DNA of 57,972 bases from a virus. Its lineage: Duplodnaviria > Caudoviricetes. A program made the position numbers and the translations under genes. The notes beneath the pieces were generated by a model that saw nothing but the letters and a program-made list of their open reading frames with translations, ran no database searches and was not told the DNA's origin. Numbering within the stretch: position 1 is the stretch's first letter; the number at the start of each line of letters is the position of its first letter. The DNA is taken from the IMG/VR virus record IMGVR_UViG_3300036985_006199, positions 1 through 57,972 of that record; one strand, given 5' to 3'. Positions 3,746 through 49,517 of this stretch are shown here, in pieces.

Positions 3746-3773
3746 TTGACAAACAGGGGCAAGACTGTAAGCT
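3746..3773 (+). promoter_or_regulatory. sigma70-type promoter for the RAMP gene/array
   Basis: TTGACA(AAC)-16 nt-TAAGCT, followed by a hairpin (3786-3803), the 20-bp palindrome (3809-3828) and a GGAGG RBS. Confidence 0.6.
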
Positions 3774-3839
3774 GGCGGCAGGATTGCGGCAGTAGATTGC
3801 CGCTTTGCACGCGAACCCGGGTTCGCGTCGGAGGACAAC

Positions 3840-4661
3840 ATGGCGAAGGAAGAGAAGTCGGGTGTGACCACGAAGTTCAAACCGTTCCTGGACATCAAGT
3901 ACCTGCGAGTGAGAATCCAGGGGTACGATCCGCTGATCGTGCATGCCTGGTCGAAGAAGGCGGTCTTGGAACTCCTGGGCAAGTCGATGAAGATCCCCAA
4001 GGGGGCGCGCGAGGAAAAGAACGCTGAGCAGGAGATGGAGGACGCCAAATACTACGACCGGGACGGCAACGAGGCCATTTTGGCGACGGCGGTCAAGAAG
4101 GCCATGATCTCGGCGATCAGCATGGTGAGCGACCTGAAGAAGACGCACATGCGACAGGCGTTCTTCGTCTGGGGTACAGTGGACAAGGAGCGCTCCGCGA
4201 TTTTGAATGCAGAAGACGGAACGCCCATGAAGGGCTTGATGCGCTTGGACCCCGTGCGGGTGGGAGGGCAGAAGGGGGCGAAGTCGGCGGACATCCGCTT
4301 TCGCCCGGAGTACCCGGAGTGGGCGGTGGACGTCGTGATTGAGTACAACGCGCTGGGGATTTCCAAAGAGCAGATCGTCAACTTGATCAACACGGCTGGA
4401 TACGGCGTGGGCATCTTCGAGTGGCGCCCGGAGAAGGATGGGACGTACGGGCGTTTCGAGGTGGCTGACGTTGAGGATCTGCCGGAGAAGCCGAAGTGGA
4501 CCAAGGCGTCGGGCTACCTGCGCAAGGGCGAGATGGACGCCAAGTCGGTGCTTGAGGCGTTGCAGATCCAGAAGGCCGTGGCTGCGAATGAGATGCTGAA
4601 GAAGAAGAGCAAGAAAAAGAAGGGCAAGAAGGCGGAAGACGTCGAGGAGGACGAGGCATAG
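3840..4661 (+). CDS. stand-alone Cas7/RAMP-like RNA-binding protein (Vipr-like)
   Basis: RAMP-like order of motifs: strand YLRVRIQGYDPLIVH, helix ILATAVKKAMISA, RFRPEYPEWAVDVVIEY, and a C-terminal glycine-rich loop AGYGVGIFEWRPEKDGTYGRFEV; basic/acidic tail; no other cas genes in the window. Confidence 0.7.
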   Translation: MAKEEKSGVTTKFKPFLDIKYLRVRIQGYDPLIVHAWSKKAVLELLGKSMKIPKGAREEKNAEQEMEDAKYYDRDGNEAILATAVKKAMISAISMVSDLKKTHMRQAFFVWGTVDKERSAILNAEDGTPMKGLMRLDPVRVGGQKGAKSADIRFRPEYPEWAVDVVIEYNALGISKEQIVNLINTAGYGVGIFEWRPEKDGTYGRFEVADVEDLPEKPKWTKASGYLRKGEMDAKSVLEALQIQKAVAANEMLKKKSKKKKGKKAEDVEEDEA

Positions 4662-4723
4662 GCCCGCGCCCTTCTTTCAACGGGCTTGGATCGCTACTCC
4701 TGGGAGGGCGGCGATCTGGGCCA

Positions 4724-5671
4724 GGCATGGCAGGAGAGGAATGGCAAGTTTTGGCGAGAATTGGCGGGGCATGGTTCGGCAGGAACGGCTGGGACTGGAT
4801 GGGTGAGGAGCGGCATGGTGCGGAAAGGCAGGAGAGGACTGGCAAGAATGGCGAGAATTGGCGGGGCCTGGCTCGGCAGGATCGGCTGGTCTTGGTATAG
4901 TTCGGTTGGGCGAGGCAACGTGAGGCAGGCAAGGAGGGGCTGGGTTCGGCCCGGTAAGGTTGGGCTGGCAGGGGCAGCGTGAGGCAGGCTTGGCATGGAT
5001 GGATTCGGCATGGGCGGAGAGGTCTGGAAGGGCAGGACTGGAGGGGCAAGGTCTGGACTGGCCAGTCTAGGTGCGGCCTGGCAGGAATGGCGGGGCTCGG
5101 TTCGGACGGATGTGCTTGGCAGGCGCGGCGAGGATGGGCTTGGCGCGGTCTGGTGACGTGTGGTTTGGCAAGGCAGGAGAGGTTGGTTCTGGAGTGGCTC
5201 GGCACGGCGTTGTACGACATGGCAAGGCAGGAGAGGTGAGGCAAGGCGCGGTAGGGACCGGCATGGTGTGGACGGGCACGGCAGGAACGGCTTGTCGGGG
5301 TTCGGTACGGTAGGGTGCGGCGAGGCTCGGATCGGCTGGAACGGCACGGTACGGTTGCGCAGGGACCGGAGCGGACGGGCAGGAAAGGCAAGGCGTGTTG
5401 AGGTCGGGACGGGCCTGGCGCGGATCGGCAGGCGGGGTTAGGACTGGCGGGGCTAGGTGAGTCCTGGATCGGATCGGCAGGTTGGGAGTGGGATGGATTG
5501 GCTTGTTGAGGCCGGGCTGGCGAGGCCAGGTGGGGCACGGTGGGAATGGGTTGGGCCTGTCAGGGCCGGTATGGCGGAGCATGGCGGCGCAGTCCGGGGC
5601 TGGGCAGGTCACGCCAAGGCAGGCGTGGCAAGGTCTGGCGGGGGGCCGCTCGGCATGGAACGGGACGGCGG
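4724..5671 (+). repeat. GGH-NN pentamer array in ~20 units (mostly GGCA + 7-11 pentamers); putative guide RNA array
   Basis: Units start at 4729, 4778, 4827, 4875, 4924, 4983, 5031, 5080, 5118, 5172, 5226, 5280, 5334, 5378, 5427, 5476, 5515, 5564, 5603, 5618; e.g. 5226 ggca ggaga ggtga ggcaa ggcgc ggtag ggacc ggcat ggtgt ggacg ggcac. Confidence 0.9.
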
Positions 5672-5710
5672 GTTCTCCGAAAATGGACCCGCAGAAAGGA
5701 TCTACAGCAC

Positions 5711-6172
5711 ATGAGAAGAAAATACCGGATCTGGGTCACCGTACAGTGGTTGACGCATGAAGAGGCGTGCGACACGTGCGGCGTGGAGTTCCTCGATCAA
5801 TGGGCCTTTGAAGACACCAACATCTACCCCCTCAGCACGGACGAGAACGGGGGCGACCCCCCGGATACCGATCCGCTCTGGGCGATGTCCTGCCACTGCG
5901 ATCATGACCTGCACGATGACACGTCCATGGAAGAGTTCTGTCGCGGGTTGGCCCATCACGTGTGGGCGATGACGGGTCGATGGGTGCCCGTCCTCATCCA
6001 GTGGTGCCGCATCGCCCCGGTGGACACCCTCTCGTTCGACCATGCAGACTTCGACGCGTTCGCGACCGAGGTGCATTCGGACCTGTTCCCATCCCGTGCC
6101 GAGGCGGTCGACGCCCTCGTCCAGTCCAGCCTCATCCTCCCCTCGGATGGATCCCCCAGCGGTTCCGCCTAG
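5711..6172 (+). CDS. hypothetical acidic His/Cys-rich protein
   Basis: ATG at 5711 after AAAGGA; the upstream part of ORF 5540 lies in the repeat array. Confidence 0.6.
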   Translation: MRRKYRIWVTVQWLTHEEACDTCGVEFLDQWAFEDTNIYPLSTDENGGDPPDTDPLWAMSCHCDHDLHDDTSMEEFCRGLAHHVWAMTGRWVPVLIQWCRIAPVDTLSFDHADFDAFATEVHSDLFPSRAEAVDALVQSSLILPSDGSPSGSA

Positions 6173-6262: not shown

Positions 6263-7069
6263 TTGCCCGATGACCCGTATTCCGATGCACCTGTGCGCAA
6301 AGGTGTCACCCCCTGGTGCCCCATGAGCCGGGGGAACCCCTTCGAGAAAATCAAGAAGCTGCGCTGCCACCAGGAGGTCTACGAGCGTCTCTGCGCGGGC
6401 TATCCCTGCCCCGAGGTGGCCCGCTACATCCAGGAGGACGAGGGGGAATACCTCGACGTGGGGCGGCCCTCGCTGGTCGGCATGCTCCGGGACTACACCG
6501 AAAGCGAGATCGTGGGCGTCGACCTGATCGCACCAAGGCTCCCGCACGTTGTGGTCAAGGCGCAGAAGGAGTTCAGCGACCGGCTGGAAGACTTGCGCCG
6601 TCTGGAACGCGCCTACGAGGCGTTGCTGTACCGCTTCGACCTGTCCCATGGTGAAGAGCGTCGCAACGGCAAGGTCAATCCCGATGTAGACCGGCAGGCC
6701 AAGGTCTTGATGGATTACATCTCCAAGATGCACGACGTTAAGATGGATCTGGGGCTCACCGGATCTCGCGACTTGGGCACGCTGACGGTGAGTGCGGAGC
6801 GGTTGGCCGCGATCAAGGACAAGTATGGCGAGGGCGCGGCGCGGGCCTTTGGCGATCCGGTTTCCAGGGCCAAGGTCTTGGGTCTGTTGAGGCGCGTGAT
6901 GAAGATCTCGGAGCGCGGAGATGTCCTGGAGTCAGACCTGGAAGAGGCGAACCTGGGTTCGCGTGACGATTCCGAACAATACCCGGAAGCTATAGAGGCC
7001 GAATTTTCTGAGGCGACCACCCCGAAACCCGCATTAGGACCGACCGAAGAAGATTCGGAAGAGCGATGA
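6263..7069 (+). CDS. putative terminase small subunit
   Basis: Helical protein directly upstream of, and ATGA-coupled to, the large terminase; start uncertain (6263 TTG or 6323 ATG). Confidence 0.45.
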   Translation: MPDDPYSDAPVRKGVTPWCPMSRGNPFEKIKKLRCHQEVYERLCAGYPCPEVARYIQEDEGEYLDVGRPSLVGMLRDYTESEIVGVDLIAPRLPHVVVKAQKEFSDRLEDLRRLERAYEALLYRFDLSHGEERRNGKVNPDVDRQAKVLMDYISKMHDVKMDLGLTGSRDLGTLTVSAERLAAIKDKYGEGAARAFGDPVSRAKVLGLLRRVMKISERGDVLESDLEEANLGSRDDSEQYPEAIEAEFSEATTPKPALGPTEEDSEER

Positions 7070-10000
7070 TCGTCACCGCCTCCAACGGGCGTCGTCGGAG
7101 CGTCAGGACGGGCGGAGAGGACATCCGCGCCTTCAAGGAGGGGTACGCGCTGTGTACGCCCGAGGAGCGGTCTCTGATCCAGGCGCTACTGAACGAGGGT
7201 GATCCGAATTCGGCGGCGGTGTTGAGTGTGGAGCTGAACGAGTCCCTGTACCGTCGCCCATTGGTATCCATGCAGCAGTTCATTGAAGATCCCTACTACC
7301 TGGGTGACTCCATGGGGACGATGTACCCGGCGCTCAAGAAGGACGTTATCGCCCTATTTGAAGCTCCATACAGGGAAGTGGTGCTGTGCCTGCATCCAGA
7401 CACGCCGATACCGCTCTTGAATGGGATGATGCCGACGCTGCGTTCGTTGGCGGAGAAGTGGGCGCAGGACAAACAGGACTTCTGGATATATGGAGTCAAT
7501 CCAGATGGACATGTTCGTCCTGCGTTGGCCACTGAACCGCGTTGCACAGGGGAGGACGACTATTATCGAGTGACGCTAGATGACGGGTCGTTCTTTGTAT
7601 CCAACGCTCGGCACAGGATGGTGATGCGAGACGGAGGCAAGCGGCAGGTTATGGACATGGTGGCTGGCGACAGTCTGATGCCATTCCAGACAGTCATGTC
7701 CACCAAGGGACGCGGAAGGCGCATCGCTGGATATGAGATGGTCATGGATTTTGTCGACGAAGAAATGCGGTATACGCATGCTCTTGTAGCGGACCATGTG
7801 CATGGATCGGTCGATCCGTCCAAGGTGACGATCCACCATGTTGACTTCGACAAACGGAATAACGAACCAGACAACTTGTCCCTCATGCCATGGAGTGATC
7901 ACCAGCTTTTGCATGCGCGGACGCGCAGAGAATGGCTTGCCGTCGATTCGGAGAGTCGGACTGCGCTAGCTGAACGCCAGCGGGCCATATGCAAAGATCC
8001 ACATTCTCCACTGAGGATGGCCCATGCTGAATTTATGGCGTCTCCAGAAGGCAGGGCACTTTCTGCAAATAATTTGGCGAAGGCCATTATCACCATAGAT
8101 GACAGGCGCGAGAGAGGTGGCAGGGCTTCTGTTTGTCGTTGGAATGGGCCTGATGGAGAAGAGCATAGGGCCGCTGCTTCAGAGCGAATGCGTGTTCGGA
8201 ATTTGTCTGGCAATGCGGCGGAGGCAGGTCGGCTGTCGTTTTCTAATCGTTCACCAGAGGCTCAAGAACGCCAGCGTCAACGGGCATTATTGAATTCGAT
8301 GAGGCAGCGTCGTGATGACGTGAATCCATCCACTATACGAGAGGCTATTGATAGCGGGTCGTCCACGTTCAAAGCTGTGGCAAAGAAGCTTGGTTGCTCT
8401 CCATGGCGCGTTCGTTGTGCGATTGTGGAAGCAGGCTTGTCGCTCCGAGAGTTCTTCCCTCGCACGCGAAATCATTATGTTGTGTCCGTGGAGCCGTGTG
8501 GAAGAGGCCCCGTATACTGCATGACGGTTCCTGACACTGAGAACTTCGCAATAGCAACGAGGCGACCAGATGGGACCGTTGCGCGATCTGGTGTTTTCTC
8601 CAGCAACACCGGAAGTATCGGATCGGGCAAAACTTTCCTGGCGAGTGCGGCCATTTGCCGCATTTTGTACGAGCTGTCGTGCATGAAGAATCCCCAGTTG
8701 ACGTTTGGGATGTCGCCCGGCACCGAGATGGTGATCATGCTGATCTCCAAGAACCTCGTGTTGGCGCGGGAGGTGATGAAAACGAGCATTGATGACAAGA
8801 TCAAGCTGAGCCCGTACTTCATGCAGCACTTCACGCCTAAATTCTCGACAGACTACACCTTGTTTCCCAATAGCATCCGCATGAACATTGGGTCATATGG
8901 TGCTGAGCGCGCCCTTGGAGCGAATATTTTTTCAGCTTTTCTGGATGAGTGTTTAGGCAAGAAAAGCTTGTTAAGCATTGGTGAACATGGTAAAAGCGCA
9001 CAGTTTCCCGTTGGCGATCTGTGGGCAATGGGGCCTGCGGGGCGCGACGGGTTGCTGGTTGAAGCGCTGGACCATGCGACGGGTCAGCAGACGTGGACGC
9101 CGTTTAGGATGCGGCTGTCCACGGTGCAACCGTTGGTACGGATCGAGACGAACCTGGGTTCGTGTGTGCGGGCTATTGAACCGTCTCGGGAGCACCCCTT
9201 GCTGGTGCGGCGCGATGAATGGCTGATCTACGTCCCGGCGCGAGAGATTGTGGTTGGGGACGAGGTCGTCTGGAGGCGCGACGATGGCGAAGAAGGGCGA
9301 GACGTTGAGCGAGGAGCAGCGACAGAAGTTGTCGGAGGCCGCGAAGCAGCGGACAGGGGAACGCAATCCATTCTGGGGGAAGACGCACAGCGAGGAGACC
9401 AAGGCGCTGTATGCAGAGAATGCGCGGCAGCAGTGGACGGGGGTCAAGCAGAGCGAGGAGACAAAGGCCAAGCGGTCGGCTGCGTTAAAGGGGCGCGTGA
9501 TGTCAGCGGAGACGCGAGCCAAGATGGCGGCATCGGCCAAGGCGCGCTGCACGCCGGAGTGGCGGGCGCGGATGTCGGCGCAGACCACGGCGGATCGAGC
9601 GAGCGGGCGTGTGACGAACATGCCCCCTGTGTATCCGGCAGGGCCAGATCATCCGAACCGTGGACAGAAGCGGACGGAGGAACAGCGGCAGCGGATGCGC
9701 GAAGCGTTCCAGGATCGCCCTGGACATGCGCACAACGAGGAATCGCGGGGCAAGATCTCGGAGGGGAATGCGCAGGCGATCAAAGATCGAGTGCGGTCCT
9801 ACCGCTACCATGTGTCGTCGCCGGATGGAGGCTTGGTGCCTTGCCGGACGGAGAACGAGAGGCACCTGGCTCAACGGCTGTGCATGGAAAGCGGTGTGGT
9901 GCGCATTGTAGGCGAAGATCAGATGGAGTGGATGCCTTACGAGTTGGATGGAAAGAAAAGGATGACGATTGGCGACTTCTTAGTGATAAGGAGCGATGGC

Positions 10001-13000
10001 GTGCAAGTATTAGTGGAGGGGAAAGATTCGGCACATCTTTATCGAGACAGGGAACGTGCGCGCTTGGAAGCAGAATGGAAGTGGTGCCAGAAAAATGGGC
10101 ACTTGATGATCCTTGCGGTGAACGATCAGCGCATTCCGAGTGTATGGACGGGACCGTTTGTGACGGAGGAGTTCATGGAGAGCGTGCGGAAACATCGCGT
10201 GCGCTTTCGCACCATGTTGACGGTAGAACCCTCGGAGGCTGTCGCTCCGAGTGCTTGCGAGTCACCGACCTGTCCGACGCCTACCAGCTCGTCCGAGTAA
10301 CGGCCACGCGGGATCTTCCAGCCGAACAGACCTACAGCATAGAGACGGACTGCCAGACCTTCGTGGCGGACGGTTGCGTGGTCCACAACACGAACTTCCC
10401 TCCGAAGCGGAGTGCACAGCAGATCAATCAGACGTTTGGCAAACAGCTCACGGCGGCTAATTTCGACATCGTGGAGAAGGTCTACCGATCCATGGTGCGG
10501 CGGATCAAGTCGCGCTTCCAGACGGCAGGCGGCGACTTCCCGGGCATGGTCATCATGGTGTCGTCGGCGGCGACGTTGGACAGCTTCACCGAGCGTAAGA
10601 TTCGGGAGGCGCGTCAGGATCCAACGGTGTTTGTGCGGGATCATACGGCGTGGACATCGAAGCCCATGGACCACTTCTGTGGTAAGTGGTTCTACGTGCT
10701 GTGCTCGAAGTCCAGCCTCCGCTCGCGCATCCTCGAAGACGGGGAGTACGATGAGATCTCGCCTGAGTACCTTGAGGAAAACAATGCTTGGCTGATCGAG
10801 GTGCCGGTAGAATACAAGGAGGACTTCGAGAGCAACCTGGAAGACTCGTTGCGCGACATCGCGGGTGTTTCGACGCAGGCGATTTCGGCGTTCTTCCAGC
10901 GTGTGGATGCAATCGAGGCGTGCATTGTGCCGGGACGCAAGCATCCATTCTCTAGTGAGGTCTGGGTCTCTGGCTCACCGGCTACGTTCGATTGGGACTA
11001 TCTGTGCCGCCGGATCGAGCGGCGACTGCCTGGAGGGTTTACCGAGACCGCGTGGGCTCCAAAGGAGTCTCCTTCGAGTCCGCGTTGGATTCACATTGAC
11101 ACGTCAATCAGTGGAGATAGCACGGGATTTTGTTGTGGGCGTATAGACAGGTGGGTCGAGGTCGTGCGGCGGGATGGGGAGGGGCACGCCTATACCGATA
11201 CCGCACCATATTATGTCATTGAGGTGCTGCTTAGTATTAGACCGCCGTCGGGCGACCAGATCTACATGCCGGATCTGCGACGTCTTGTGTACGAGTTGCA
11301 GGCGCATGGCTTCCCAATCCACGGGTTTTCCAGTGACTCTTTTCAGTACGTCGAGATGCATCAACAGATCAGGCGGCACGGCATCCATACCGAGCTGATC
11401 TCCATGGATCGCACCATTGATCCTTACGAGGAGCTGAAGTCGGCTATTTACGAGAAGCGCATCGAATTCTACGAGTACACGAACCTGCTTCAGGAGTTGC
11501 GATCTTTGGAATATGATCGCGTGAAGGGTAAAATTGACCATCCTAGACATTCGAGTAAAGATTGCATCTCTGGGGACACCAGGATTTCCTTGCTGAACGG
11601 TAGTGAGGTCATGATCCGGGATCTCGTTGGGCAGGAATTCTGGGTGTACGCCTGCACACCGAACGGTACGGTGGTTCCAGCCCACGCTCATAATGTACAT
11701 CTGGTTGGAGACCGGGACGTGATGCGAATTTGGCTCGACAACGGGTCGCATTTGGATTGCACTCCAGACCATGAGATCATGATGCGCGATGGCGAGTTCC
11801 GGGAAGCTAAGTCCATATCGGTTGGAGATAGCCTCATGCCGTTGTATCGGGATGTTTCCGTGGCAAATCCAAAGCATGGTCTGGATGGGTATGAGAGAGT
11901 TCTTGATAACAAGACCGGACGGTATGTTTTTACGCACCAGTTGGTCGCCAATACGGTTGGTGGATTTGCATATGCGGGGAATAGGAAAGAGCGCCGAATC
12001 ATTCATCATGCCGATTTTAATAAGAGAAATAACGATCCGGCCAACCTTGTTCCCATGGAGTGGCATGAACATCTGCGCGTGCATCGAACCGTAGCGTCTC
12101 AGAATATGAAACGGCTGTGGGAGGATGACGAGTATCGGAAGAAGGCATGTCTACGCAGTGGGAAGATCGGAAGGGTAACCGGGCCGATCAACATGACACG
12201 GTACAACAGGTCTCAGGAACGCATCGAGAAACTTCAGGCCAAGGGGACATTCGCGGCAAATGGAAAGAAGGTCATGCAGCAGTTGTGGGCGGACCCTGAA
12301 TATCGACGCCGACATCGTCAGCGCGTGTCTGGATCTGGCAACCATTGGGCGAGGAAAGATGTGACGATGGATCGCATATTGACCGTTGCTGCGAGCGTCA
12401 CGAGCCAGGTTGATCTGTTGCGAGAGTTACGGTGTACCCAGAAGGTATTGGCGCGAGTCTTGTTGGAGAACGGGATGTCTTGCCGGGACTTGGCGGTGAA
12501 ATTTGGTCATCATCGCCATCGTGGCAGCGCGGCTTATCAGTTTCGACATGACGTTACATTTGACCGTGTTCTGGAGACTGCGAAGACGGTGTCCACCGTC
12601 CAGGAACTGTGCGCTACCATGAAATGTACTCCAAAGGTGTATCACCGCGTGATCCAATCACAGGGATGGACAGCAGCGAAATTCAAGGGCGCACATTTCA
12701 AAAAGTCGCAGACTAACCATCAGGTGGTGCGCGTGGAAATGCTTGGGGCGGTCCCTGTGTATGATATGACGGTGGACGTTCATCATAACTTCGCCATCTC
12801 CGCTGGCATGTTTGTCCACAACTGCTCTGATGCCCTGGCCGGGACGATCTGGGGACTGCGGCAACAGGCCGCTCGCTTGCCGTGGGCTGCTGATGCTGAT
12901 ACACCAAGAGTAGCGGTCGGTCATGATCATGGCTGGGTGAGCGACATGATCCCAGCCGAGGACGTGGATCTGGACGAGGTACGCGCGGCACGCTCGGCTC

Positions 13001-13044
13001 AGTCTGCCCACGTTCTGATGCCCTTCTTCATAGGAGATGACTGA
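7066..13044 (+). CDS. terL: terminase large subunit precursor with three inteins (mature ~685 aa)
   Basis: Spliced exteins give VVL|TGSIGSGKT (Walker A), FLDE|T (Walker B), IHIDTSISGDSTG and KIDHPRHSSKD|CSDA (RNase H-like nuclease). Confidence 0.92.
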   Translation: MIVTASNGRRRSVRTGGEDIRAFKEGYALCTPEERSLIQALLNEGDPNSAAVLSVELNESLYRRPLVSMQQFIEDPYYLGDSMGTMYPALKKDVIALFEAPYREVVLCLHPDTPIPLLNGMMPTLRSLAEKWAQDKQDFWIYGVNPDGHVRPALATEPRCTGEDDYYRVTLDDGSFFVSNARHRMVMRDGGKRQVMDMVAGDSLMPFQTVMSTKGRGRRIAGYEMVMDFVDEEMRYTHALVADHVHGSVDPSKVTIHHVDFDKRNNEPDNLSLMPWSDHQLLHARTRREWLAVDSESRTALAERQRAICKDPHSPLRMAHAEFMASPEGRALSANNLAKAIITIDDRRERGGRASVCRWNGPDGEEHRAAASERMRVRNLSGNAAEAGRLSFSNRSPEAQERQRQRALLNSMRQRRDDVNPSTIREAIDSGSSTFKAVAKKLGCSPWRVRCAIVEAGLSLREFFPRTRNHYVVSVEPCGRGPVYCMTVPDTENFAIATRRPDGTVARSGVFSSNTGSIGSGKTFLASAAICRILYELSCMKNPQLTFGMSPGTEMVIMLISKNLVLAREVMKTSIDDKIKLSPYFMQHFTPKFSTDYTLFPNSIRMNIGSYGAERALGANIFSAFLDECLGKKSLLSIGEHGKSAQFPVGDLWAMGPAGRDGLLVEALDHATGQQTWTPFRMRLSTVQPLVRIETNLGSCVRAIEPSREHPLLVRRDEWLIYVPAREIVVGDEVVWRRDDGEEGRDVERGAATEVVGGREAADRGTQSILGEDAQRGDQGAVCRECAAAVDGGQAERGDKGQAVGCVKGARDVSGDASQDGGIGQGALHAGVAGADVGADHGGSSERACDEHAPCVSGRARSSEPWTEADGGTAAADARSVPGSPWTCAQRGIAGQDLGGECAGDQRSSAVLPLPCVVAGWRLGALPDGEREAPGSTAVHGKRCGAHCRRRSDGVDALRVGWKEKDDDWRLLSDKERWRASISGGERFGTSLSRQGTCALGSRMEVVPEKWALDDPCGERSAHSECMDGTVCDGGVHGERAETSRALSHHVDGRTLGGCRSECLRVTDLSDAYQLVRVTATRDLPAEQTYSIETDCQTFVADGCVVHNTNFPPKRSAQQINQTFGKQLTAANFDIVEKVYRSMVRRIKSRFQTAGGDFPGMVIMVSSAATLDSFTERKIREARQDPTVFVRDHTAWTSKPMDHFCGKWFYVLCSKSSLRSRILEDGEYDEISPEYLEENNAWLIEVPVEYKEDFESNLEDSLRDIAGVSTQAISAFFQRVDAIEACIVPGRKHPFSSEVWVSGSPATFDWDYLCRRIERRLPGGFTETAWAPKESPSSPRWIHIDTSISGDSTGFCCGRIDRWVEVVRRDGEGHAYTDTAPYYVIEVLLSIRPPSGDQIYMPDLRRLVYELQAHGFPIHGFSSDSFQYVEMHQQIRRHGIHTELISMDRTIDPYEELKSAIYEKRIEFYEYTNLLQELRSLEYDRVKGKIDHPRHSSKDCISGDTRISLLNGSEVMIRDLVGQEFWVYACTPNGTVVPAHAHNVHLVGDRDVMRIWLDNGSHLDCTPDHEIMMRDGEFREAKSISVGDSLMPLYRDVSVANPKHGLDGYERVLDNKTGRYVFTHQLVANTVGGFAYAGNRKERRIIHHADFNKRNNDPANLVPMEWHEHLRVHRTVASQNMKRLWEDDEYRKKACLRSGKIGRVTGPINMTRYNRSQERIEKLQAKGTFAANGKKVMQQLWADPEYRRRHRQRVSGSGNHWARKDVTMDRILTVAASVTSQVDLLRELRCTQKVLARVLLENGMSCRDLAVKFGHHRHRGSAAYQFRHDVTFDRVLETAKTVSTVQELCATMKCTPKVYHRVIQSQGWTAAKFKGAHFKKSQTNHQVVRVEMLGAVPVYDMTVDVHHNFAISAGMFVHNCSDALAGTIWGLRQQAARLPWAADADTPRVAVGHDHGWVSDMIPAEDVDLDEVRAARSAQSAHVLMPFFIGDD
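7387..8607 (+). mobile_element. intein 1 in TerL (407 aa, HNH endonuclease)
   Basis: Starts CLHPDT, ends GVFSSN|T; HNH motif IHHVDFDKRNNEPDNL; inserted just before Walker A. Confidence 0.88.
8950..10389 (+). mobile_element. intein 2 in TerL (480 aa) containing a nested out-of-frame endonuclease gene
   Basis: Starts CLGKKS, block B SREHPLL, ends FVADGCVVHN|T; inserted after Walker B DE. Confidence 0.85.
9284..10300 (+). CDS. NUMOD3-repeat, TnsA-like PD-(D/E)XK homing endonuclease nested in the +1 frame of intein 2
   Basis: GGAGG at 9272 then ATG 9284; NUMOD3-like repeats (NPFWGKTHSEETK, KQSEETKAKRS, HNEESRGKISE); nuclease-like MPYELDGKKRMTIGDFLV...LVEGK. Confidence 0.8.
   Translation: MAKKGETLSEEQRQKLSEAAKQRTGERNPFWGKTHSEETKALYAENARQQWTGVKQSEETKAKRSAALKGRVMSAETRAKMAASAKARCTPEWRARMSAQTTADRASGRVTNMPPVYPAGPDHPNRGQKRTEEQRQRMREAFQDRPGHAHNEESRGKISEGNAQAIKDRVRSYRYHVSSPDGGLVPCRTENERHLAQRLCMESGVVRIVGEDQMEWMPYELDGKKRMTIGDFLVIRSDGVQVLVEGKDSAHLYRDRERARLEAEWKWCQKNGHLMILAVNDQRIPSVWTGPFVTEEFMESVRKHRVRFRTMLTVEPSEAVAPSACESPTCPTPTSSSE
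11563..12822 (+). mobile_element. intein 3 in TerL (420 aa, HNH endonuclease)
   Basis: Starts CISGDT, block B CTPDH, HNH IHHADFNKRNNDPANL, ends HNFAISAGMFVHN|C. Confidence 0.9.
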
Positions 13045-13046
13045 AC

Positions 13047-16000
13047 ATGGGCTGGATGGACACCGTCAAGAAGTTCTTCAGCCGCGACACCACGGGCAAG
13101 GTCACTGAACTGGCCCGGGGGTCTTCTGGCGAATCGTCTATGCCGAACATGGTGCCAAGCGCGCCAGACTCCGGCATGGGCGGAGCATACCAACAGCTTG
13201 CGACGATGCTCTCGGTCGACGCGGACCTCATGCTCCGCTATGCCGACTACGAGAACATGGACGACTACCCGGAGATCAGCGCGGCGCTGGACATCTACGC
13301 CGACGACGCGACGATCACGGACGCCGTGCATGGGCGGGTGATCTGGGGCACCTCGAAGGACAAGATTGTCCGGGACATCGTCAATGACTTGCTGCATCGC
13401 CGCATCCGCATCGAAGAGGACATCTGGGCGGCCGTTCGCACCATGGGTCAGTACGGAAATTTGTACTGTTTGCCTGCTGGATCTCGGGTGTGGACTGACC
13501 AGGGGCCGCGCGCTATCGAGACAATCGAAGCAGGCGCCATGGTCCAGGGGTACAAGGAAGGGGAAAAGGTCTTTTTGCCAGTAGCGAGGCGGTTGGACAA
13601 CGGGGTGCGCGAGATCTTCCGAGTGCGCACTCGGCATCGGGAGTTTTTTGCGACAGCAGACCACCCTGTGCTGGTTGACTGCGGCAATGGTGTCACGGAG
13701 TGGGTGCAAGTCGGTGATCTGAGGGTCGTGCGTTATGAGCCGAGTCCTGGTCGGAATACAGGCAGTATAAATTATGCCAAGACGCACAAATTGGTGATTG
13801 CCACCTCGTGTCATGAGGCAGCGGAAGCCCCGCTGTGCCGAGATCTGTTCGTTGCCGACGTGCATCCCAAGGAGCGAGAGATCGGCGGAAACGTGACCAA
13901 CGATTTCTGCGCCCCTGATCGGATGGATCCGTGGCTGTGTCGTCTCCTCGGGTTCATGTATGGGGATGGCGGACTAGCTACCGAGAGAATGGACGTGAGC
14001 AACAGCACGGTGTGGCTCTGTCGCAAGGAATACGAGGACCGCAACGAATACTACGAGGGGTTGTTGCGGCGCTTGCATCTCGAACCGAATCCGAATGAGG
14101 ACGGGACACTGACACTCGTTCATTCCATCCTATTCAAGTGCTTCTTGCTGTCGCTCGGCTGGAAGAACGGATCGGGAAAGAAGCGACTCCCGCTGTGGCT
14201 GGGTAGTTTACCACGAGAGCATCGGTTGGCGTTCCTGGATGGGTTCATGGATGCAGATGGATGGACGACCGATCCGCCAACATGGACGGGGTCGGCATAT
14301 CACTTTGAGATCAGCAATATCGAGTTGGCGCGAGATCTGAAGTGCCTGATCGATGGACTTGGGTTCCGCTCTGGGAACCTACGGTTCAGGACGCGCGAAG
14401 CACCGATTATCAACGGAAAACAGGTTCAGTCTGTGCAAGAGTCAGCGATGCTGACGTTCTCACGGCATGAGTTTGGTGGGGACTTTGTGTCGGAGACTCT
14501 TCTCGAAGTTGAGCCTGCCGGACAAGCACAGGTCTACGATCTGGAAATCGCGGACGATGCACATAATTTCGTGGCGGAAGGTGTCGTTGTTCACAACTGC
14601 GAGATCGTGATGAACGAGACCGGCGTGCTGGGTCTCAACTGGCTGCCCCCGCCGACCATGCGGCGCATCATCGACGTGCGCGGCAGCCTTGTCGGGTTCG
14701 TGCAAGATCCGTCCGGCATGTTCTCCTTCAACATTGCGACGCGGGAGGATCTGGAGAAGCTGCGCGAGAAGCGCGACGGCAGCACGGCGACCTTCTTCTA
14801 CCCCTGGGAGGTGGCGCACTGGCGCCTGCGGGGCAAGCAGATGCGGGCGCTGTACGGCTACTCCCTGCTGGACTCGGCCCGGTGGATCTGGAAGCGCCTT
14901 GTGATGCTGGAGGACAGCAGCCTGGTCTGCAAGCTGTGCCTGCATGGTGACACGTTGGTATGGACTCCGGGTGGAGCTACGAAGATCCGGGACGTTGAAG
15001 AGGGAGATGAGGTGCTTTCCTACGCTCCTGGTGGTGCGTTGATCAAAACACGTGTGACATATAAGAAACACAACGGGACGGATAGGTTGTTCCGGGTGTC
15101 AAGCAAGCATAGGGATATTGTCGCTAACGCGACCCACCCGGTGCTCGTTGAGTGGTCTGTTGGGAATGGAAGTGGACGACCGAAGACGAGGTTCCAGGAA
15201 TACGTAGAGGTTCAAAACATAAAGCCAGGAGAGCATATGTTTGTGACGCCGTCTGTCGAGGACGGGGTGTGCGACTACGTTCCGTTGGTGATGCCTGAAG
15301 TTGGGCAAAAAGCACGACTGATGCCGTCTGTTGCGTCTTCGCCTGCTGTTGAGATGAAGTTTGGGGCGGGACGTCTCGGTCAACGGTGCGGGGTTCGGTC
15401 TCCGCTGGTGAAGGAGTTCTTCGATGGCGAGTACGAGATCAATCTAGGGGCGGCGATTCGATTGCTTCGAGAGAATGGTACATCTCTGGATGTGTTGGAT
15501 GTGAGAGATGACTGGGGCGGAGCCGTTCCGAATATTCCCAATGTTGCCAACGAGGATTTCGCGCGTTGGTTTGGATTCATGATTGGAGATGGCTGGGCAT
15601 CGGAGCGCCCGTTCTCGAAGGGTGAGAAGAAATATTTTGTGCGCGAGATCGGTTTTGCCGCTGGCGTGGACGACGAGATCAATAAGAAATATCTTGCATT
15701 GTTTGAGCGGTTCTTTGGCCCGGCGCGGTTCAACAAGGATAGCAAGTCGACGCACGATCACGTTGGGGCATTCGTCATTTCTTCAAAGGTGGCGGTTGAG
15801 TTCATGTGCCTCAACGGATTTTCCACGGGTGCCCACAACAAGCGAGTTCCACAGTGGGTATTTGAGTCTCCGTTATCTGTGCGGCTTGCCTTCTTGGAGG
15901 GGCTTGCTGATGCGGACGGTCACATACGTGAGATGAGCGTTGGGGAGAATCATGCAAAGGTACGTTTCAAGCGAGTGACGCTGGAGATGTGCAACCATGG

Positions 16001-17186
16001 GCTTCTTGAAGATGTCCGGTTGCTCTGCATGCAGATTGGTTTAGTAGTGGGACATGTGAATTCTCGTGTGAGGGTGGGTGGTCGCACTATCTCTGGCAAT
16101 GACAATCCCTTGCCGGAGACGGTGTCGCACTCGTTTTCATATTCATTTGATCGCATGCCTTTGAGCGAGGATATCGAGAAGGTCGAAGAGGTCGCAGCGG
16201 ACGACATTTGGGATATCGGTGTAGTTGCGGAGGAGCACAACTTTGTGGCGAACGGTGTGGTTGTGCATAACACCAAGGCCCCGGCGCGCTTCGCCTTCTA
16301 CGTGGATACCGGCGAGATGCCGCCACGTGAGGCCAAGGCCATGGTGGAGGAGGTCCGCCGCCGCTACAAGAAGAAGCGGATCGTGGACCCGGCTACTGGA
16401 AAGCTAGACTTTCGATTTAATCCGCTCGAAAATAGTGAAGATTTCTTTATACCTACGCGGGCTGGGAAGGAAGCCTCGCGGGTGGAGGTCATTGCTGGCC
16501 CTGACTACGACGACACCAATGTGCTCGGCTACTTCCTGAAGAAGCTGTACGCGGCCATCCGCATCCCGCCGCAGTACCTGGGCGGCACCGAGGTGACGAA
16601 CCGGGCCGCGCTGACCCAGGAGGACGTGCAGTTCGCCCGGCTGGAGATGCGCCTCCAGAGCGAGTTCACGGGCGGTCTGTTGCAAGTGGTGCGCGTGCAT
16701 CTGGCCGCGCTGAACATCGATCCTGATTCGGTGAAGTGGGATCTGCGGATGTCCGCGCCGAGCAGCATCTTCGAGATGCAGCAGATCGAGGTTTGGAACG
16801 CGCGGGTGGCGTTGGCGGTGGGCCTGCGCGATTTCTTTACGATCCCGTGGATCATCGCAAACATCTTCCACATGTCGGATGAGGACGCGCTGTTTGCGAC
16901 CGAGGCGAAGCGCAACGAGGACGAGTCCACGGCCATGGCGCAGGCGCAGGTACAGGCGGACATCATGCAGCGGTTCCCGGAGCTGAGCCCCATGGCGGGG
17001 ATGCTCAGTGGGGCAGAGGGGGAGCAGCCCCCGCCGGGGGCGACTGAGGATGTGCGACGTGAGATCCGCCGGGTGATGGCCGAGACATCCGGGGGGCAGA
17101 ACGAGGTGTTGCGGCGACTCGCCCGGATCGAGCCCGCCATTTCCCGGGTCGAGCGGCGCGTGCGCACGGCTCGCACCGGGTCATGA
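13047..17186 (+). CDS. portal protein (T4 gp20-like) precursor with two inteins (mature ~557 aa)
   Basis: gp20-like motifs YENMDDYPEISAALDIYADD, YGYSLLDSAR, L..LEDS....L|TKAPARFAFYVDTG, EDFFIPTR; position after terL. Confidence 0.9.
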   Translation: MGWMDTVKKFFSRDTTGKVTELARGSSGESSMPNMVPSAPDSGMGGAYQQLATMLSVDADLMLRYADYENMDDYPEISAALDIYADDATITDAVHGRVIWGTSKDKIVRDIVNDLLHRRIRIEEDIWAAVRTMGQYGNLYCLPAGSRVWTDQGPRAIETIEAGAMVQGYKEGEKVFLPVARRLDNGVREIFRVRTRHREFFATADHPVLVDCGNGVTEWVQVGDLRVVRYEPSPGRNTGSINYAKTHKLVIATSCHEAAEAPLCRDLFVADVHPKEREIGGNVTNDFCAPDRMDPWLCRLLGFMYGDGGLATERMDVSNSTVWLCRKEYEDRNEYYEGLLRRLHLEPNPNEDGTLTLVHSILFKCFLLSLGWKNGSGKKRLPLWLGSLPREHRLAFLDGFMDADGWTTDPPTWTGSAYHFEISNIELARDLKCLIDGLGFRSGNLRFRTREAPIINGKQVQSVQESAMLTFSRHEFGGDFVSETLLEVEPAGQAQVYDLEIADDAHNFVAEGVVVHNCEIVMNETGVLGLNWLPPPTMRRIIDVRGSLVGFVQDPSGMFSFNIATREDLEKLREKRDGSTATFFYPWEVAHWRLRGKQMRALYGYSLLDSARWIWKRLVMLEDSSLVCKLCLHGDTLVWTPGGATKIRDVEEGDEVLSYAPGGALIKTRVTYKKHNGTDRLFRVSSKHRDIVANATHPVLVEWSVGNGSGRPKTRFQEYVEVQNIKPGEHMFVTPSVEDGVCDYVPLVMPEVGQKARLMPSVASSPAVEMKFGAGRLGQRCGVRSPLVKEFFDGEYEINLGAAIRLLRENGTSLDVLDVRDDWGGAVPNIPNVANEDFARWFGFMIGDGWASERPFSKGEKKYFVREIGFAAGVDDEINKKYLALFERFFGPARFNKDSKSTHDHVGAFVISSKVAVEFMCLNGFSTGAHNKRVPQWVFESPLSVRLAFLEGLADADGHIREMSVGENHAKVRFKRVTLEMCNHGLLEDVRLLCMQIGLVVGHVNSRVRVGGRTISGNDNPLPETVSHSFSYSFDRMPLSEDIEKVEEVAADDIWDIGVVAEEHNFVANGVVVHNTKAPARFAFYVDTGEMPPREAKAMVEEVRRRYKKKRIVDPATGKLDFRFNPLENSEDFFIPTRAGKEASRVEVIAGPDYDDTNVLGYFLKKLYAAIRIPPQYLGGTEVTNRAALTQEDVQFARLEMRLQSEFTGGLLQVVRVHLAALNIDPDSVKWDLRMSAPSSIFEMQQIEVWNARVALAVGLRDFFTIPWIIANIFHMSDEDALFATEAKRNEDESTAMAQAQVQADIMQRFPELSPMAGMLSGAEGEQPPPGATEDVRREIRRVMAETSGGQNEVLRRLARIEPAISRVERRVRTARTGS
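13467..14597 (+). mobile_element. portal intein A (377 aa, LAGLIDADG)
   Basis: CLPAGS...ATADHP...LLGFMYGDG...FLDGFMDADG...HNFVAEGVVVHN|C. Confidence 0.9.
14937..16271 (+). mobile_element. portal intein B (445 aa, LAGLIDADG)
   Basis: CLHGDT...NATHP...WFGFMIGDG...FLEGLADADG...HNFVANGVVVHN|T. Confidence 0.9.
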
Positions 17187-22472: not shown

Positions 22473-22553
22473 TAGAAAACCACTAACATTTTGATATGTT
22501 ATGCGCTTGGTTACGCTGGGCGCAACCTCACTTTTAGCTGCGTCCGTTTCCAT

Positions 22554-22583
22554 TTGACACTGAGCTGGCATTGGTCATACCAT
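22554..22583 (+). promoter_or_regulatory. promoter of the endonuclease gene downstream of the capsid gene
   Basis: TTGACA-18 nt-TACCAT; ATG 22590 follows after a 6-nt gap. Confidence 0.5.
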
Positions 22584-22589
22584 TGCCAA

Positions 22590-24227
22590 ATGGAAGACAC
22601 CTTTGAAAAACGGGACTGGAAGTCTAGCGGCGGAGTGCGTTTGGTGGTGCTGGATCTGGGCCAGGAATCGGTGGTGGAGCGGCTTGCTCATGGGATCACG
22701 GTGGAGCCTGGTTGCATCTATGTGTTCTCGGACGAGTGGTCGGATCGGCGTATAGCGTGTGAATCATTTGCGCAGTCACGGGCGGGCATCTTCGAGCGTC
22801 GTATGGGAGCACGGAAGTGTGTGGTGCGGGAGGTGGAGAAGGCGGAGGCTCGGAAGTTTTTAGATGAGTTCCACATCCAGGGAGCAAACCACCTGTCTCT
22901 TGTCGTGTTTGGTCTATTCGTGGGGGAAGAACTGATCGGCGTCTTGTCTCTTGGACGGCACCATCGACAGGGGCAGGAACGGCGGGTCGTATTGGACCGG
23001 CTATGCTTTCGTGCTGGGGTGCAAGTGGTGGGCGGGTCATCTCGGATGTTGGATCGGGCTCGGACATGGGCGGAAGAGCATGGCTATGACGAGATTTTGA
23101 GCTTTAGTGACAACCGTCTGACGCCTGGTGTCGTGTACGACCGGCTGGGGTTTGTGGCGGATTCTTATTGTCGTCCTGACTACTTCTATGTGCAAGATGG
23201 TCGACGTATTTCAAAGCAGAGCCAGCGCAAACGAGCGAGTGGGTGCCCAGTGGGGATGACGGAGCGGTCATGGGCTCAGGATCGTGGTTTGATTCGTTGC
23301 TACGATGCGGGGAAGGTTAGGTGGGTGTTGCCACTGAAACCGTTGTCTCACCCGACGCGACAGGAGGAAAATTCGGAGCAGGCGGCCAGGCGCAATGCGG
23401 ATGGTATCTGTGGTGGTGGGCTCCACATGCGTGGGTATTTCCCTTTCAAGAAGGCGGGTGGGGAGGTGTACTTTGGGTCTTCCTACGAGCTGCGCTGCAT
23501 GTTCGAGCTGGAAAACGATCCAGATGTGCGAACCTTTCGGCGGTGCGAGGTGTTCAAGACTCCAAAGGGACGGTGGCGTGCCCCGGACCTATGGATCGAG
23601 AGACGAGATGGGCGCGGCGAGATCTGGGAGGTTAAGCCATCTGCCATGGTGGACAAGCCGAGAGCGCGGGCGCAGATCGCGGACACCGCTGTGCATGCGG
23701 CAACGACTGGTGTTGGATTTCGTGTCTGGACGGAGCGGGACAGCGCGCTGAAAGAGGATGGCCGGATCATTGGATGGGCGCGTGAGTATCTGTCGCGTCA
23801 GCAGGGGGATACCACTTACGAGGTGCGGAACAAGCGGACACGCAAGGCCATTCGAGAGCGTCATTATGCGAAGGAGCAGGCAGCGTCGGTCGTGGTGCAT
23901 TGCGACTACTGTAAGGTGGACCACACGGTGTTGCCGCGTACATACGCTCGGAACATTGCAAATCACGATGGGGTGTACGTGTGCGAGGCCATGGCTGGGC
24001 ACATCGGCGGAAGCAAGCCAAAGGACCACTTGAAAAAGACGAACCCGTACGCGGTGGAGGGACGGAAGCAGTGCAGCATGTGCGAGCAGATACTTCCCGT
24101 GGATCAGTTCCAGAAGAGGATAGCTTCATGGGATGGGTTGAGCGCGGCATGCAAGCCGTGCCTCCGAGTGTACGATGCGGCGCGGTACCGGAAGCGGTGC
24201 GACGCGAACCCAGGTTCGTGTCGGTGA
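22590..24227 (+). CDS. free-standing endonuclease-like protein: GNAT/Mom-like N-domain, TnsA-like PD-(D/E)XK domain and Zn ribbons
   Basis: ARKCVVRE...FLDEFHIQG...SFSDNRL...YDAGKVRW; SSYELR...PDLWIE...IWEVKP; CxxC pairs; lower GC3 than flanking genes. Confidence 0.6.
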   Translation: MEDTFEKRDWKSSGGVRLVVLDLGQESVVERLAHGITVEPGCIYVFSDEWSDRRIACESFAQSRAGIFERRMGARKCVVREVEKAEARKFLDEFHIQGANHLSLVVFGLFVGEELIGVLSLGRHHRQGQERRVVLDRLCFRAGVQVVGGSSRMLDRARTWAEEHGYDEILSFSDNRLTPGVVYDRLGFVADSYCRPDYFYVQDGRRISKQSQRKRASGCPVGMTERSWAQDRGLIRCYDAGKVRWVLPLKPLSHPTRQEENSEQAARRNADGICGGGLHMRGYFPFKKAGGEVYFGSSYELRCMFELENDPDVRTFRRCEVFKTPKGRWRAPDLWIERRDGRGEIWEVKPSAMVDKPRARAQIADTAVHAATTGVGFRVWTERDSALKEDGRIIGWAREYLSRQQGDTTYEVRNKRTRKAIRERHYAKEQAASVVVHCDYCKVDHTVLPRTYARNIANHDGVYVCEAMAGHIGGSKPKDHLKKTNPYAVEGRKQCSMCEQILPVDQFQKRIASWDGLSAACKPCLRVYDAARYRKRCDANPGSCR

Positions 24228-36291: not shown

Positions 36292-36855
36292 ATGCCGAGT
36301 CGCCACCCACTGGAAGACCTGCTTCAATCCCACCGCTTCTGGCTGGTCGATCTCGTGCCGTCCTCGACGTTCCCGTTCTTCGTGATGGGCGCCCCGATCA
36401 TGGGGTTCCAGTCGATCACGATGCCCGAGGTGACGTTGGAGGTGGACGAGATCAAGCAGGTCAACTCCATGTACAAGCGGTACGCCTACAGCGGGGGCAG
36501 CGTGGGGGCGATCACGCTGACGCGCGGGGCGCGGGCCTATGATGACACCTTCAACCTGTGGGTGGACCGGGCGATCCGGGGCTACGACATGGTGCCGCGC
36601 AACCTGCTCTTGATCCAGTTCACGGGGATCAACGTGGCGAACGCGCTGGGGCTGAGCGTGGACCTGCCGACGGCGATCCAGGCGTGGGAGGTCGCACAGT
36701 TCCTGCCGGGCAGGGCCTGGTTGCTGTGGGATTGTATCCCGACGCGGTACAAGGCGGGCACGGACATGGACGCGATGTCGGGGGACGTGAGTATAATGGA
36801 ACTCGATATACAGCCAGTAGCCGTAACCGAGTTTGCGCTACTGAGCGTGACGTGA
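36292..36855 (+). CDS. second tail tube-like protein (gp19 family)
   Basis: GFQSITMPE, ITLTRG, W.LWDCIPTRY; paralog of the upstream tube gene. Confidence 0.8.
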   Translation: MPSRHPLEDLLQSHRFWLVDLVPSSTFPFFVMGAPIMGFQSITMPEVTLEVDEIKQVNSMYKRYAYSGGSVGAITLTRGARAYDDTFNLWVDRAIRGYDMVPRNLLLIQFTGINVANALGLSVDLPTAIQAWEVAQFLPGRAWLLWDCIPTRYKAGTDMDAMSGDVSIMELDIQPVAVTEFALLSVT

Positions 36856-49282: not shown

Positions 49283-49515
49283 AGACGACGGCTTGTGAGG
49301 AGTAGCAGAGCCAGTGCGAAACGAGCGAGTTAAACGGGAGACTAGCGTGGGCAAGATCGGGTCGAGAGATCCGGTCGTTGGAAGCCAACTGAACGAGCTG
49401 CCCGTGGCAGAGCGCGGTACGTCTGAGATGCTACCCAAGTCCCAGACCTCTACGTTCGTCAGTCGCGATGGGGAACAGAGACGAGTTCAAGGGTCTCGGC
49501 TTACAGCGACAAAAA
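49264..49515 (+). ncRNA. omegaRNA (HEARO-like) scaffold
   Basis: ~250 nt between the IS left end and the PLMP start, with typical GACTAGC and ATGCTACCCAAGTCC segments; boundaries approximate. Confidence 0.65.
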
Positions 49516-49517
49516 CC

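Follow-up and report, generated by a model that had tools for sequence, protein, structure and literature searches.

The vipr gene and its product

Within the window, by which we mean the whole 57,972-nucleotide stretch of viral DNA analysed here, a gene encoding a 273-residue protein stands ahead of a long array of five-nucleotide repeats, and the features of this locus are collected in Table 1. Both the open reading frame and the motif GYGVGIFEWRPEKDGTYGRF inside it are present as the first-pass annotation had described for a RAMP-like protein. When the AlphaFold model (pLDDT 88) was compared with known structures, the predicted fold matched Cmr, Csm3, and Cas7 chains, with Z values of up to 10.9. 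No Vipr entry was among these fold matches, with the Foldseek library ending on 8 April 2026. At the sequence level, the only significant match in the PDB was the Vipr protein of SUSP1 (PDB ID: 36pp_D), with E-values of 2.2e-4 for the single sequence and 1.4e-11 for a profile of 121 homolog sequences, and a total of 219 Vipr homologs were retrieved. The resemblance to VIPR systems that the first-pass annotation had raised is borne out by this match and by the arrays that the homologs carry. As for the proposed Cas7/RAMP identity, the RAMP fold holds while the family does not, as the product is a Vipr and not a Cas7 proper, Vipr having been placed outside Cas5/6/7 (bioRxiv 10.64898/2026.04.26.720920). 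The protein has no family in Pfam or NCBIfam, and its PHROGs match (phrog_4652) is of unknown function.

Table 1. Features of the vipr locus and its surroundings, by window position.
Feature	Position	Strand	Remarks
Promoter-like motif, TTGACA ... TAAGCT	3746..3773	+	Upstream of vipr; predicted to belong to a promoter family used phage-wide
22-nt palindrome in the vipr 5' leader	3808..3829		One of eight dispersed window copies; candidate operator or RNA hairpin
vipr gene, 273 aa	3840..4661	+	RAMP core (about residues 19-214), then about 60 aa of C-terminal extension that includes a long helix and is specific to the clade
Site in vipr read by sister guide L006_12	4317..4340	+	14/16 here, 16/16 in G005
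Leader	4662..4732	+	Predicted hairpin at about 4683-4722; ends GGCAT-GGCAG; sequence conserved in sisters
Staggered vrRNA array	4733..5672	+	19 units of 8-12 GGH-NN pentamers, 1-nt overlap; GGCAG last in 15/19
Guide 1	4733..4782	+	Private; best match in the KMDLG motif of the sisters' probable small-terminase gene, 15/18
Guide 3	4831..4879	+	Nearly duplicates guide 1; holds one 4-nt unit; KMDLG motif, 16/18 in G003 and G005
Guide 14	5382..5431	+	Family in 6/7 arrays; 18/18 in bacterial dinD, at the C-terminal KKVERRLAS motif
Trailer guides 16-19	5480..5672	+	In 7, 7, 5, and 6 of 7 arrays, respectively
Predicted hairpin at the array 3' end	5668..5692	+	Possible terminator or 3' cap; z -1.3 (weak)
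Conserved gene, probable small terminase	6323..7069	+	Overlaps the large-terminase start; assigned by position; 66 homologs
Predicted target sites in the 6323-7069 gene	6614-6640, 6734-6760		Recurrent among sisters

In the sequence alignment, His35, Arg155, Glu194, Trp195, and Arg196 correspond to His17, Arg138, Asp177, Trp178, and Arg179 of SUSP1 Vipr, in which, according to the accessible part of the structural report, the residues reading G1 and G2 and stacking on Y3 have been identified (10.64898/2026.04.26.720927). Moreover, Arg155 and Arg196 are invariant across the 121 homologs. Judged by this alignment, the G-loop and thumb residues that bind GG are retained in the window Vipr. The residue preceding the G-loop Glu is Phe in seven of the eight close-clade proteins and Gly in SUSP1 and most of the family, and the C-terminal extension is conserved within the same close clade of eight.

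Array architecture

The five-nucleotide GGH-NN periodicity noted at the outset proved to be confined to one place and one strand. Between 4662 and 5700, the GG autocorrelation reached 132 at lag 5 and 117 at lag 10, as against 14-18 at lags 2, 3, 7, and 8; each of the five 500-nt bins ranking highest for periodicity in the window (starts 4501-5501) overlaps the array, and no such signal was seen on the minus strand in the window scan. Among 170 regular pentamers, G has a frequency of 0.94 at position 1 and 0.89 at position 2, position 3 is C (0.46), A (0.26), or T (0.26) and seldom G (0.02), and positions 4-5 are near uniform, a composition from which we conclude that the GGH-NN scheme is correct.

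Pentamers begin at 4724, with the first full unit at 4733, and here the last G of the terminal GGCAG also serves as the first G of the next unit. The other unit ends are GGCTG (twice) and GGCCG (once), and the last unit runs into the predicted 3' hairpin. Units 3, 6, and 8 each hold an internal 4-nt step. The unit step follows 5n-1 and ranges from 38 to 59 nt, so that the originally proposed length of about 49 nt is the commonest step among several; likewise, the unit that had been placed at 5226 actually starts at 5230.

The same staggered array lies 3' of vipr in all eight close viral loci and in two close metagenome loci. More broadly, 97 of 126 homolog loci have a sense-strand total of at least eight GG-NNN pentamers lying in runs, compared with four on the opposite strand, which agrees with the expectation that homologs would stand next to arrays. 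These 126 loci are those with enough flank among 132 examined, namely 80 from metagenomes and 52 of 80 viral loci, the other 28 having been dropped as close-clade and duplicate records. Some homologs have very long arrays of 150-190 pentamers in runs (L212, L214, and L297; L236 and L239), in some cases flanking the gene on both sides, and in L246 and L247 the runs (35 pentamers) lie on the strand opposite vipr. At L060 (G010:C1:140920-144144), a related phage with a 64% identical capsid protein encodes another kind of Vipr, matching the profile at E 4e-9; its array is of an NGGCR type, with units ending in AGGAA/T-CGTGG, and is followed by a conserved-looking ORF. We take L060 to be an independent acquisition of VIPR within one phage family.

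Flanking sequences and expression

The promoter anticipated ahead of the gene has a candidate in the TTGACA motif at 3746, though a sigma-70 scan did not call it. The motif TTGACAAAC-N-TA...T also precedes vipr in the sister genomes G001 and G005 and recurs throughout the sister genomes. For the leader hairpin, 12 consensus pairs with no compensatory changes and a z of 0.27 leave the structure unsupported, and Rfam gave no match. Downstream of the array and before the next promoter, the ORF at 5702-6172 is not conserved among the sisters and probably represents a variable slot rather than a vap, the accessory gene that is "typically" present in VIPR (10.64898/2026.04.26.720920). Upstream, an SNF2 helicase gene is conserved, a distant homolog of which also precedes the terminase genes in G010, which has no vipr at that place. 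The 6323-7069 gene gave a weak lead only in the Atlas (Terminase_5 on 67% of a 0.91 cluster), and from its position is probably the small terminase.

Words of the locus are present in two sediment metatranscriptomes. Contigs of the first (X1) span much of the array together with a portion of vipr, one 158-nt piece showing no difference; their depth is 3-7, they carry no strand or end information, pieces of the flanking genes are covered as well, and DNA carry-over is possible. The second run gave mainly short foreign pieces. These contigs lend slight support to expression of the array and vipr. As a separate observation, RNA-run contigs join across or double back within the array at 4833-4983 and 5381-5441, which suggests strain variants with units deleted or duplicated.

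The phage and its genome

The genes of the window, among them those for Gp23 capsid, Gp20 portal, prohead protease, and tail sheath, make up the region for packaging and structure in a T4-like phage with a sheath. This large sediment phage has a genome of roughly 185 kb, about one third of which is in the window (sister G003 has 168,688 nt at 91% estimated completeness). Capsid proteins are 93-96% identical between the window and the sister contigs, and the nearest ones from cultured phages share less than 31% identity with that of the window. Several inteins with HNH and LAGLIDADG endonucleases occur in the large terminase and portal (7066-17186); these are absent from G001 and G002, and other sisters hold different sets.

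Other elements of the window were also noticed. Directly 3' of the major capsid gene lies a Mom-family DNA-modification gene (22491-24227), which would be a second anti-restriction trait of the phage. An RRXRR-domain protein with an HNH-family PHROG match (49314-50549) is presumably IscB-like, and would be a second possibly RNA-guided gene of the phage. An exact 51-nt direct repeat with a spacing of 661 nt (36842-36892 and 37503-37553) spans the ribosome site and gene start in each copy. Furthermore, a 22-nt palindrome is dispersed at 3808, 6944, 9145, 17514, 24201, 29931, 40068, 47784, and 51569, several copies standing directly ahead of a GGAGG ribosome site. Its strict form occurs eight times in the window and 3-16 times in six of seven close sister records, and no copy was found in G008 and G010. 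It may be an operator, an RNA hairpin, or a REP-like element.

Constraint on the NN pairs and polarity of the array

We compared seven arrays, with units paired on pentamer positions 3-5 at equal weight. In 113 orthologous guide pairs (942 pentamers), the fractions differing at positions 1 to 5 were 0.02, 0.11, 0.23, 0.07, and 0.06, where chance would give 0.10, 0.24, 0.68, 0.74, and 0.75. Between distant clades, the NN pair differs by 6-8%, base 3 by 33%, and base 2 by 19%. As the NN pair drifts less (6-7%) than base 3 (23%), it is the NN pair that carries information. A contiguous code with base 3 also read was considered and rejected, since base 3 drifts and equals the skipped target base in only 15% of cases (163/1080). 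Of six frames, sense codon positions 1-2 agree best with the dinucleotide usage of the guides, yet the fit does not exceed that of a uniform usage.

These data bear on a simpler account of the locus, in which a solo Cas7-like anti-CRISPR or an orphan CRISPR RAMP lies beside a G-rich, low-complexity repeat without guide function. While its CRISPR RAMP fold matches would suit such a protein, the sequence match is to Vipr and not Cas7, a neutral repeat is not expected to constrain its NN pairs more than base 3, and the arrays travel with the gene (97/126 loci), all of which makes this account extremely improbable.

The array is polar, with private guides at the 5' end and shared guides at the 3' end. 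Guide sharing rises toward the 3' end (rho 0.47, the units not being independent): units 16 and 17 are found in all seven arrays, 14 and 19 in six, and 18 in five, and units 1, 3, 5, 8, and 10 are private to the window array among the seven. The window, L001, and L002 have unit 2 in common; ahead of it the window and L001 each have a first unit of their own and L002 has none, a context that would fit guide addition at the leader end. Recombination also acts on the arrays, given that in L006 and L007 blocks of the same units appear in a different order and internal units have been lost or replaced.

Scaffold base 3 and the G-loop residue

GGA accounts for 26% of the window units, and in SUSP1 this triplet abolished silencing (10.64898/2026.04.26.720920), a discrepancy that weighs against the VIPR reading. 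From 138 loci, we kept 57 distinct proteins with a readable motif and at least 15 pentamers, and placed them on a quick tree. Where the residue before the G-loop acid is not Gly (but Phe, Cys, or His), 13 of 14 proteins have arrays with a GGA share of 25% or more; where it is Gly, one of 43 does. On this tree the trait undergoes about six changes, with six independent pairs over all branches and two on well-supported ones, and with only these two the sign test is unable to reach significance. Co-evolution of the G-loop residue with GGA use is, from these sequences, suggested but not shown. The homolog L299 has the G-loop CEWRM and an array with 79-89% GGA, and we regard it as a candidate GGA-specific variant.

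Guides matching sister phages

Decoding the guides gave matches beyond chance, so that the idea of a target spelled by the NN pairs stands, with the gap between pairs being 1 nt and not the 0-2 nt first allowed; the unit originally offered as the example (5230) returned only scattered, chance-level matches. For guides 1 and 3, the best match is to DIKMDLGLT, a motif encoded by the 6323-7069 gene of G003 and G005; this motif reads EIKMDLGLS in such homologs as P0177 and P0154, a form nearer guide 3. To the phage's own copy of this gene, the matches are 13/18 for guide 1 and 15/18 for guide 3. The two guides differ by the residues I/L, M/L, I/L, and a terminal S, all of which are seen at those places among the 66 homologs. 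Conversely, a guide of sister arrays L006 and L007 (L006_13) matches the window at 6614 in 17/18 positions, the sole mismatch being a synonymous Leu codon, and its owner's own gene in 15/18; a second, weaker match (16/18) lies inside a distant vipr gene. Another sister guide, L006_12, reaches 16/16 over its first eight units, and its owner's vipr reads DWMTDIII at the target site, versus EWAVDVIV. All of these sister-phage matches are on the sense strand with the skip at the wobble position.

Among 300 shuffles on 1.19 Mb of sister DNA, none did as well as L006_13, one as well as guide 3, 12 as well as L006_12, 53 as well as guide 1, and 82 as well as L007_1, by which measure guide 1 alone is not above shuffles. 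With 73 guides pooled and run on 2.65 Mb of DNA from related phages, three near-perfect matches were obtained versus 2.8 for shuffles. In a neighbourhood test of 88 guides, over a region picked after the matches were known, there were four matches at skip-1, one at skip-0, and none at skip-2. On these sequence comparisons, the sister-phage matches are likely, though not certain, to be real targets. The self-match is uncomfortably high, in that guide 3 on its own gene (15/18) exceeds the 80% threshold of the VIPR papers; no window guide had a self-target above shuffles in the window and the first loci.

A search of roughly 150 distant vipr neighbourhoods, covering both strands over 3.5 Mb, gave no convincing match for the window guides. 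Scans of the viral collection with guide 11 (14 matches), the guide-19 family (11), and guide 17 (80 listed of 102) gave scattered, chance-level matches with no second guide nearby. Close-lying matches of guides 16 and 18 in G003 were rejected as being out of frame. The trailer guides 16-19 had no targets in the viral-collection and genome searches, and altogether no target was found for 16 of the 19 window guides in the searches run.

Guide 14 and bacterial dinD

A 17-letter scan of the viral collection with the guide-14 family returned five matches, about the chance number. On L377, a 35-kb IMG/VR viral contig, the match extends to 18/18 with the window unit and lies in frame in dinD (NF008573, above the cut-off). 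A 20-letter pattern, chosen for a genome scan after this viral match, then gave at least 120 exact matches in species-representative genomes of many phyla, for an expected 0.5-1.1. Here, all 121 examined matches fall in the DinD motif VKKVERRLAS, in the sense direction and in wobble phase, and the site lies 72-99 nt before the dinD stop codon (80 measured). Moreover, the 5' extension of the family in distant sisters and its 3' extension in the window clade both fit the DinD motif. Within 401 genomes of one phylum there were two exact matches, one of them in the seed genome, dinD being patchy; with two mismatches allowed, 41 of the 401 matched, fewer than with the reversed control, which marks these as noise. 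No other guide matched the 80 dinD loci (2.2 Mb around dinD), and guide 15 on five genomes, as well as guides 16, 17, and 19 on 50 of the 120 dinD-bearing genomes, stayed near the control level with no shared in-phase motif.

Very large databases might by chance alone furnish both the dinD and the terminase matches, leaving a VIPR array whose targets are all unknown. Extensions by chance do occur, as with guide 11 (19/20) and guide 17 (18/18) on unrelated viral contigs, and the 20-letter scan was picked after the viral match. Even so, an expectation of about 1 would, by the Markov bound, hold the probability of at least 120 matches at about 1% per pattern, and every match is in the sense direction and wobble-phased. 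Besides this, all three sister-phage target sites are sense and in phase and belong to one or other of the two array-flanking genes, and the residues by which guide 1 departs from guide 3 are seen at those places among the 66 homologs. We consider chance an unlikely explanation, and regard the guide-14 family as very probably derived from dinD.

DinD itself matches the PADLOC candidate PDC-S13 (E 9.8e-114), and as a defence gene it has the status of a database candidate. The name is from NF008573 and SOS inducibility is from the literature on dinD, and in those parts of the literature that were accessible to our search dinD was met as an SOS reporter only, with no link of DinD to phage defence or VIPR. 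We examined the five nearest ORFs at 24 of 29 full-flank dinD loci (119 ORFs). Restriction-modification genes of type I, II, or III are near dinD in 13 of the 24 and other defence genes in one, and the next gene downstream is hsdS or a methyltransferase in eight. The remaining 10 have no restriction or other clear defence gene among these ORFs, two of them showing helicase-type matches only.

Whether guide 14 is aimed at the host can be read in two ways, to which we give equal and somewhat less than even weight. In one, VIPR is purely directed at mobile elements, and the source of guide 14 was a dinD copy carried by a competing element such as a prophage or satellite, any effect on host restriction being incidental. 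This would account for the first dinD match being on a viral contig (L377) and for the 10 of 24 loci without a clear defence gene nearby. Restriction enzymes are present before infection begins, and silencing their genes afterwards would for that reason help little, which also counts in its favour. Yet the exact matches, at least 120, are in cellular genomes of many phyla, DinD is a PDC-S13 candidate with restriction-modification neighbours in 13 of 24 loci, and a satellite target should have drawn several guides, where no other guide matched the 2.2 Mb around dinD. In the other reading, phages aim VIPR at host defences, and guide 14 would use the conserved end of dinD as an address tag common to many restriction operons (types I, II, and III) that are otherwise unrelated, so that dinD and, through a roadblock, the hsdS or mod gene behind it are silenced whatever the specificity of the enzyme; the array would gain guides at its leader end in a CRISPR-like manner without Cas1-Cas2, and a single G-loop residue would widen GGY to GGH. 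That the guide-14 family serves to silence host defence is, by itself, similarly tentative.

Proposed mode of action and relation to known systems

We are confident that the locus is best explained as a phage VIPR system, whose predicted targets are mixed, these being the terminase and vipr genes of related phages, and dinD. By this explanation, vipr and the array would be transcribed from the 3746 promoter, and the 1-nt stagger suggests that the array is cut at GGCAG/G junctions into vrRNAs of 40-60 nt. By homology with SUSP1 and P. fulva, one Vipr protomer may sit on each pentamer, with GGH buried and NN presented, and the filament may bind double-stranded DNA as a gapped R-loop that skips one target base per NN and blocks transcription. 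As the skipped base is the codon wobble, each guide spells about nine codons of a conserved protein motif. The recent 5' guides would be directed at terminase genes of related phages (and, in the sisters' guides, at vipr too), as a form of competition during co-infection. The old guide 14 would be directed at dinD, a damage-inducible gene of defence islands often found just ahead of hsdS or mod, with dinD and the downstream restriction-modification genes presumably silenced. New guides would be gained at the leader end.

The locus is a VIPR system and a member of an already described kind, which is clear because staggered arrays with 1-nt overlap and NNNGG variants have been described (10.64898/2026.04.26.720920). 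Shared with that description are the stand-alone RAMP gene, the absence of cas genes, the pentamer guides with a 1-nt skip at the wobble base, guides against other phages, staggered arrays (in the legend to its Fig. S18), and the NNNGG consensus. A VIPR guide there consists of about 9-16 tandem pentamers with a fixed GGY (or related consensus) and variable NN (10.64898/2026.04.26.720920), and the window has the GGH variant with 8-12 pentamers per unit. Non-canonical repeats are also reported in the accessible part of another source (10.64898/2026.10.21.760802). The minimal locus, in a phage and without cas genes or a CRISPR array, is found here for the window, where none of 54 ORFs scanned against PADLOC is a Cas protein and no CRISPR-like repeat family occurs, as had been said from the start. 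The wobble skip appears computationally in 3 of the 19 window guides and two sister guide families, the whole-set test being at chance. As for the mode of action, the available parts of the preprints show double-stranded DNA binding with transcriptional silencing for SUSP1 and P. fulva. Unlike in our analysis, the text of 10.64898/2026.04.26.720920 names no host-defence gene as target, and discusses neither array polarity nor guide acquisition.

Compared with the type II VIPR of SUSP1 (PDB ID: 36pp), and going by the accessible part of its report (10.64898/2026.04.26.720927), the window Vipr shares the fold and the equivalents of His17, Arg138, Asp177, Trp178, and Arg179, while SUSP1 Glu71 and Gly176 align with Ala84 and Phe193. 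The window protein is longer (273 versus 202 residues), uses GGH in place of GGY, and is without vap1. The 19 guides of the window are tail-less and overlapping, as opposed to four guides with a pseudoknot tail in SUSP1; in place of the invariant structured 3' tail of each type II vrRNA (SUSP1 and P. fulva), the window units end in one pentamer that overlaps the next. In the part of 10.64898/2026.10.15.759431 at hand, vipr-targeting and solo vrRNAs resemble L006_12 in being directed against the vipr of relatives, wobble-aligned, and with a lower self-match. The host targets described in that work are REP decoys that satellites employ, in contrast to a coding gene of defence islands and the sisters' terminase here. 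With the Cas7, Csm3, and Cmr4 proteins of class 1 CRISPR, the window Vipr has in common an RRM, thumb, and G-loop fold and a predicted filament on guide RNA, but the window contains no cas operon or repeat-spacer array, and its guide code is non-contiguous.

The system itself having already been published, the locus draws its interest from the guide against dinD, from the polarity of the array, and from the hypothesis on the G-loop. From the association between the G-loop and GGA comes a one-residue hypothesis for scaffold specificity, and the tail-less array of 19 guides offers a compact multiplexing scaffold. As a lineage in which to watch guides arise, there are seven related arrays whose 3' ends are shared and whose 5' ends are private, one 5' guide being duplicated. 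VIPR targets named so far, in the accessible parts of 2026.04.26.720920 and 2026.10.15.759431, are satellites, prophages, vipr genes, vrRNAs, and REP decoys. If a gene of defence islands is indeed the target of a guide kept for so long, VIPR would extend to counter-defence of the phage against its host, and guide 14 would be natural evidence that DinD (PDC-S13) acts against phages.
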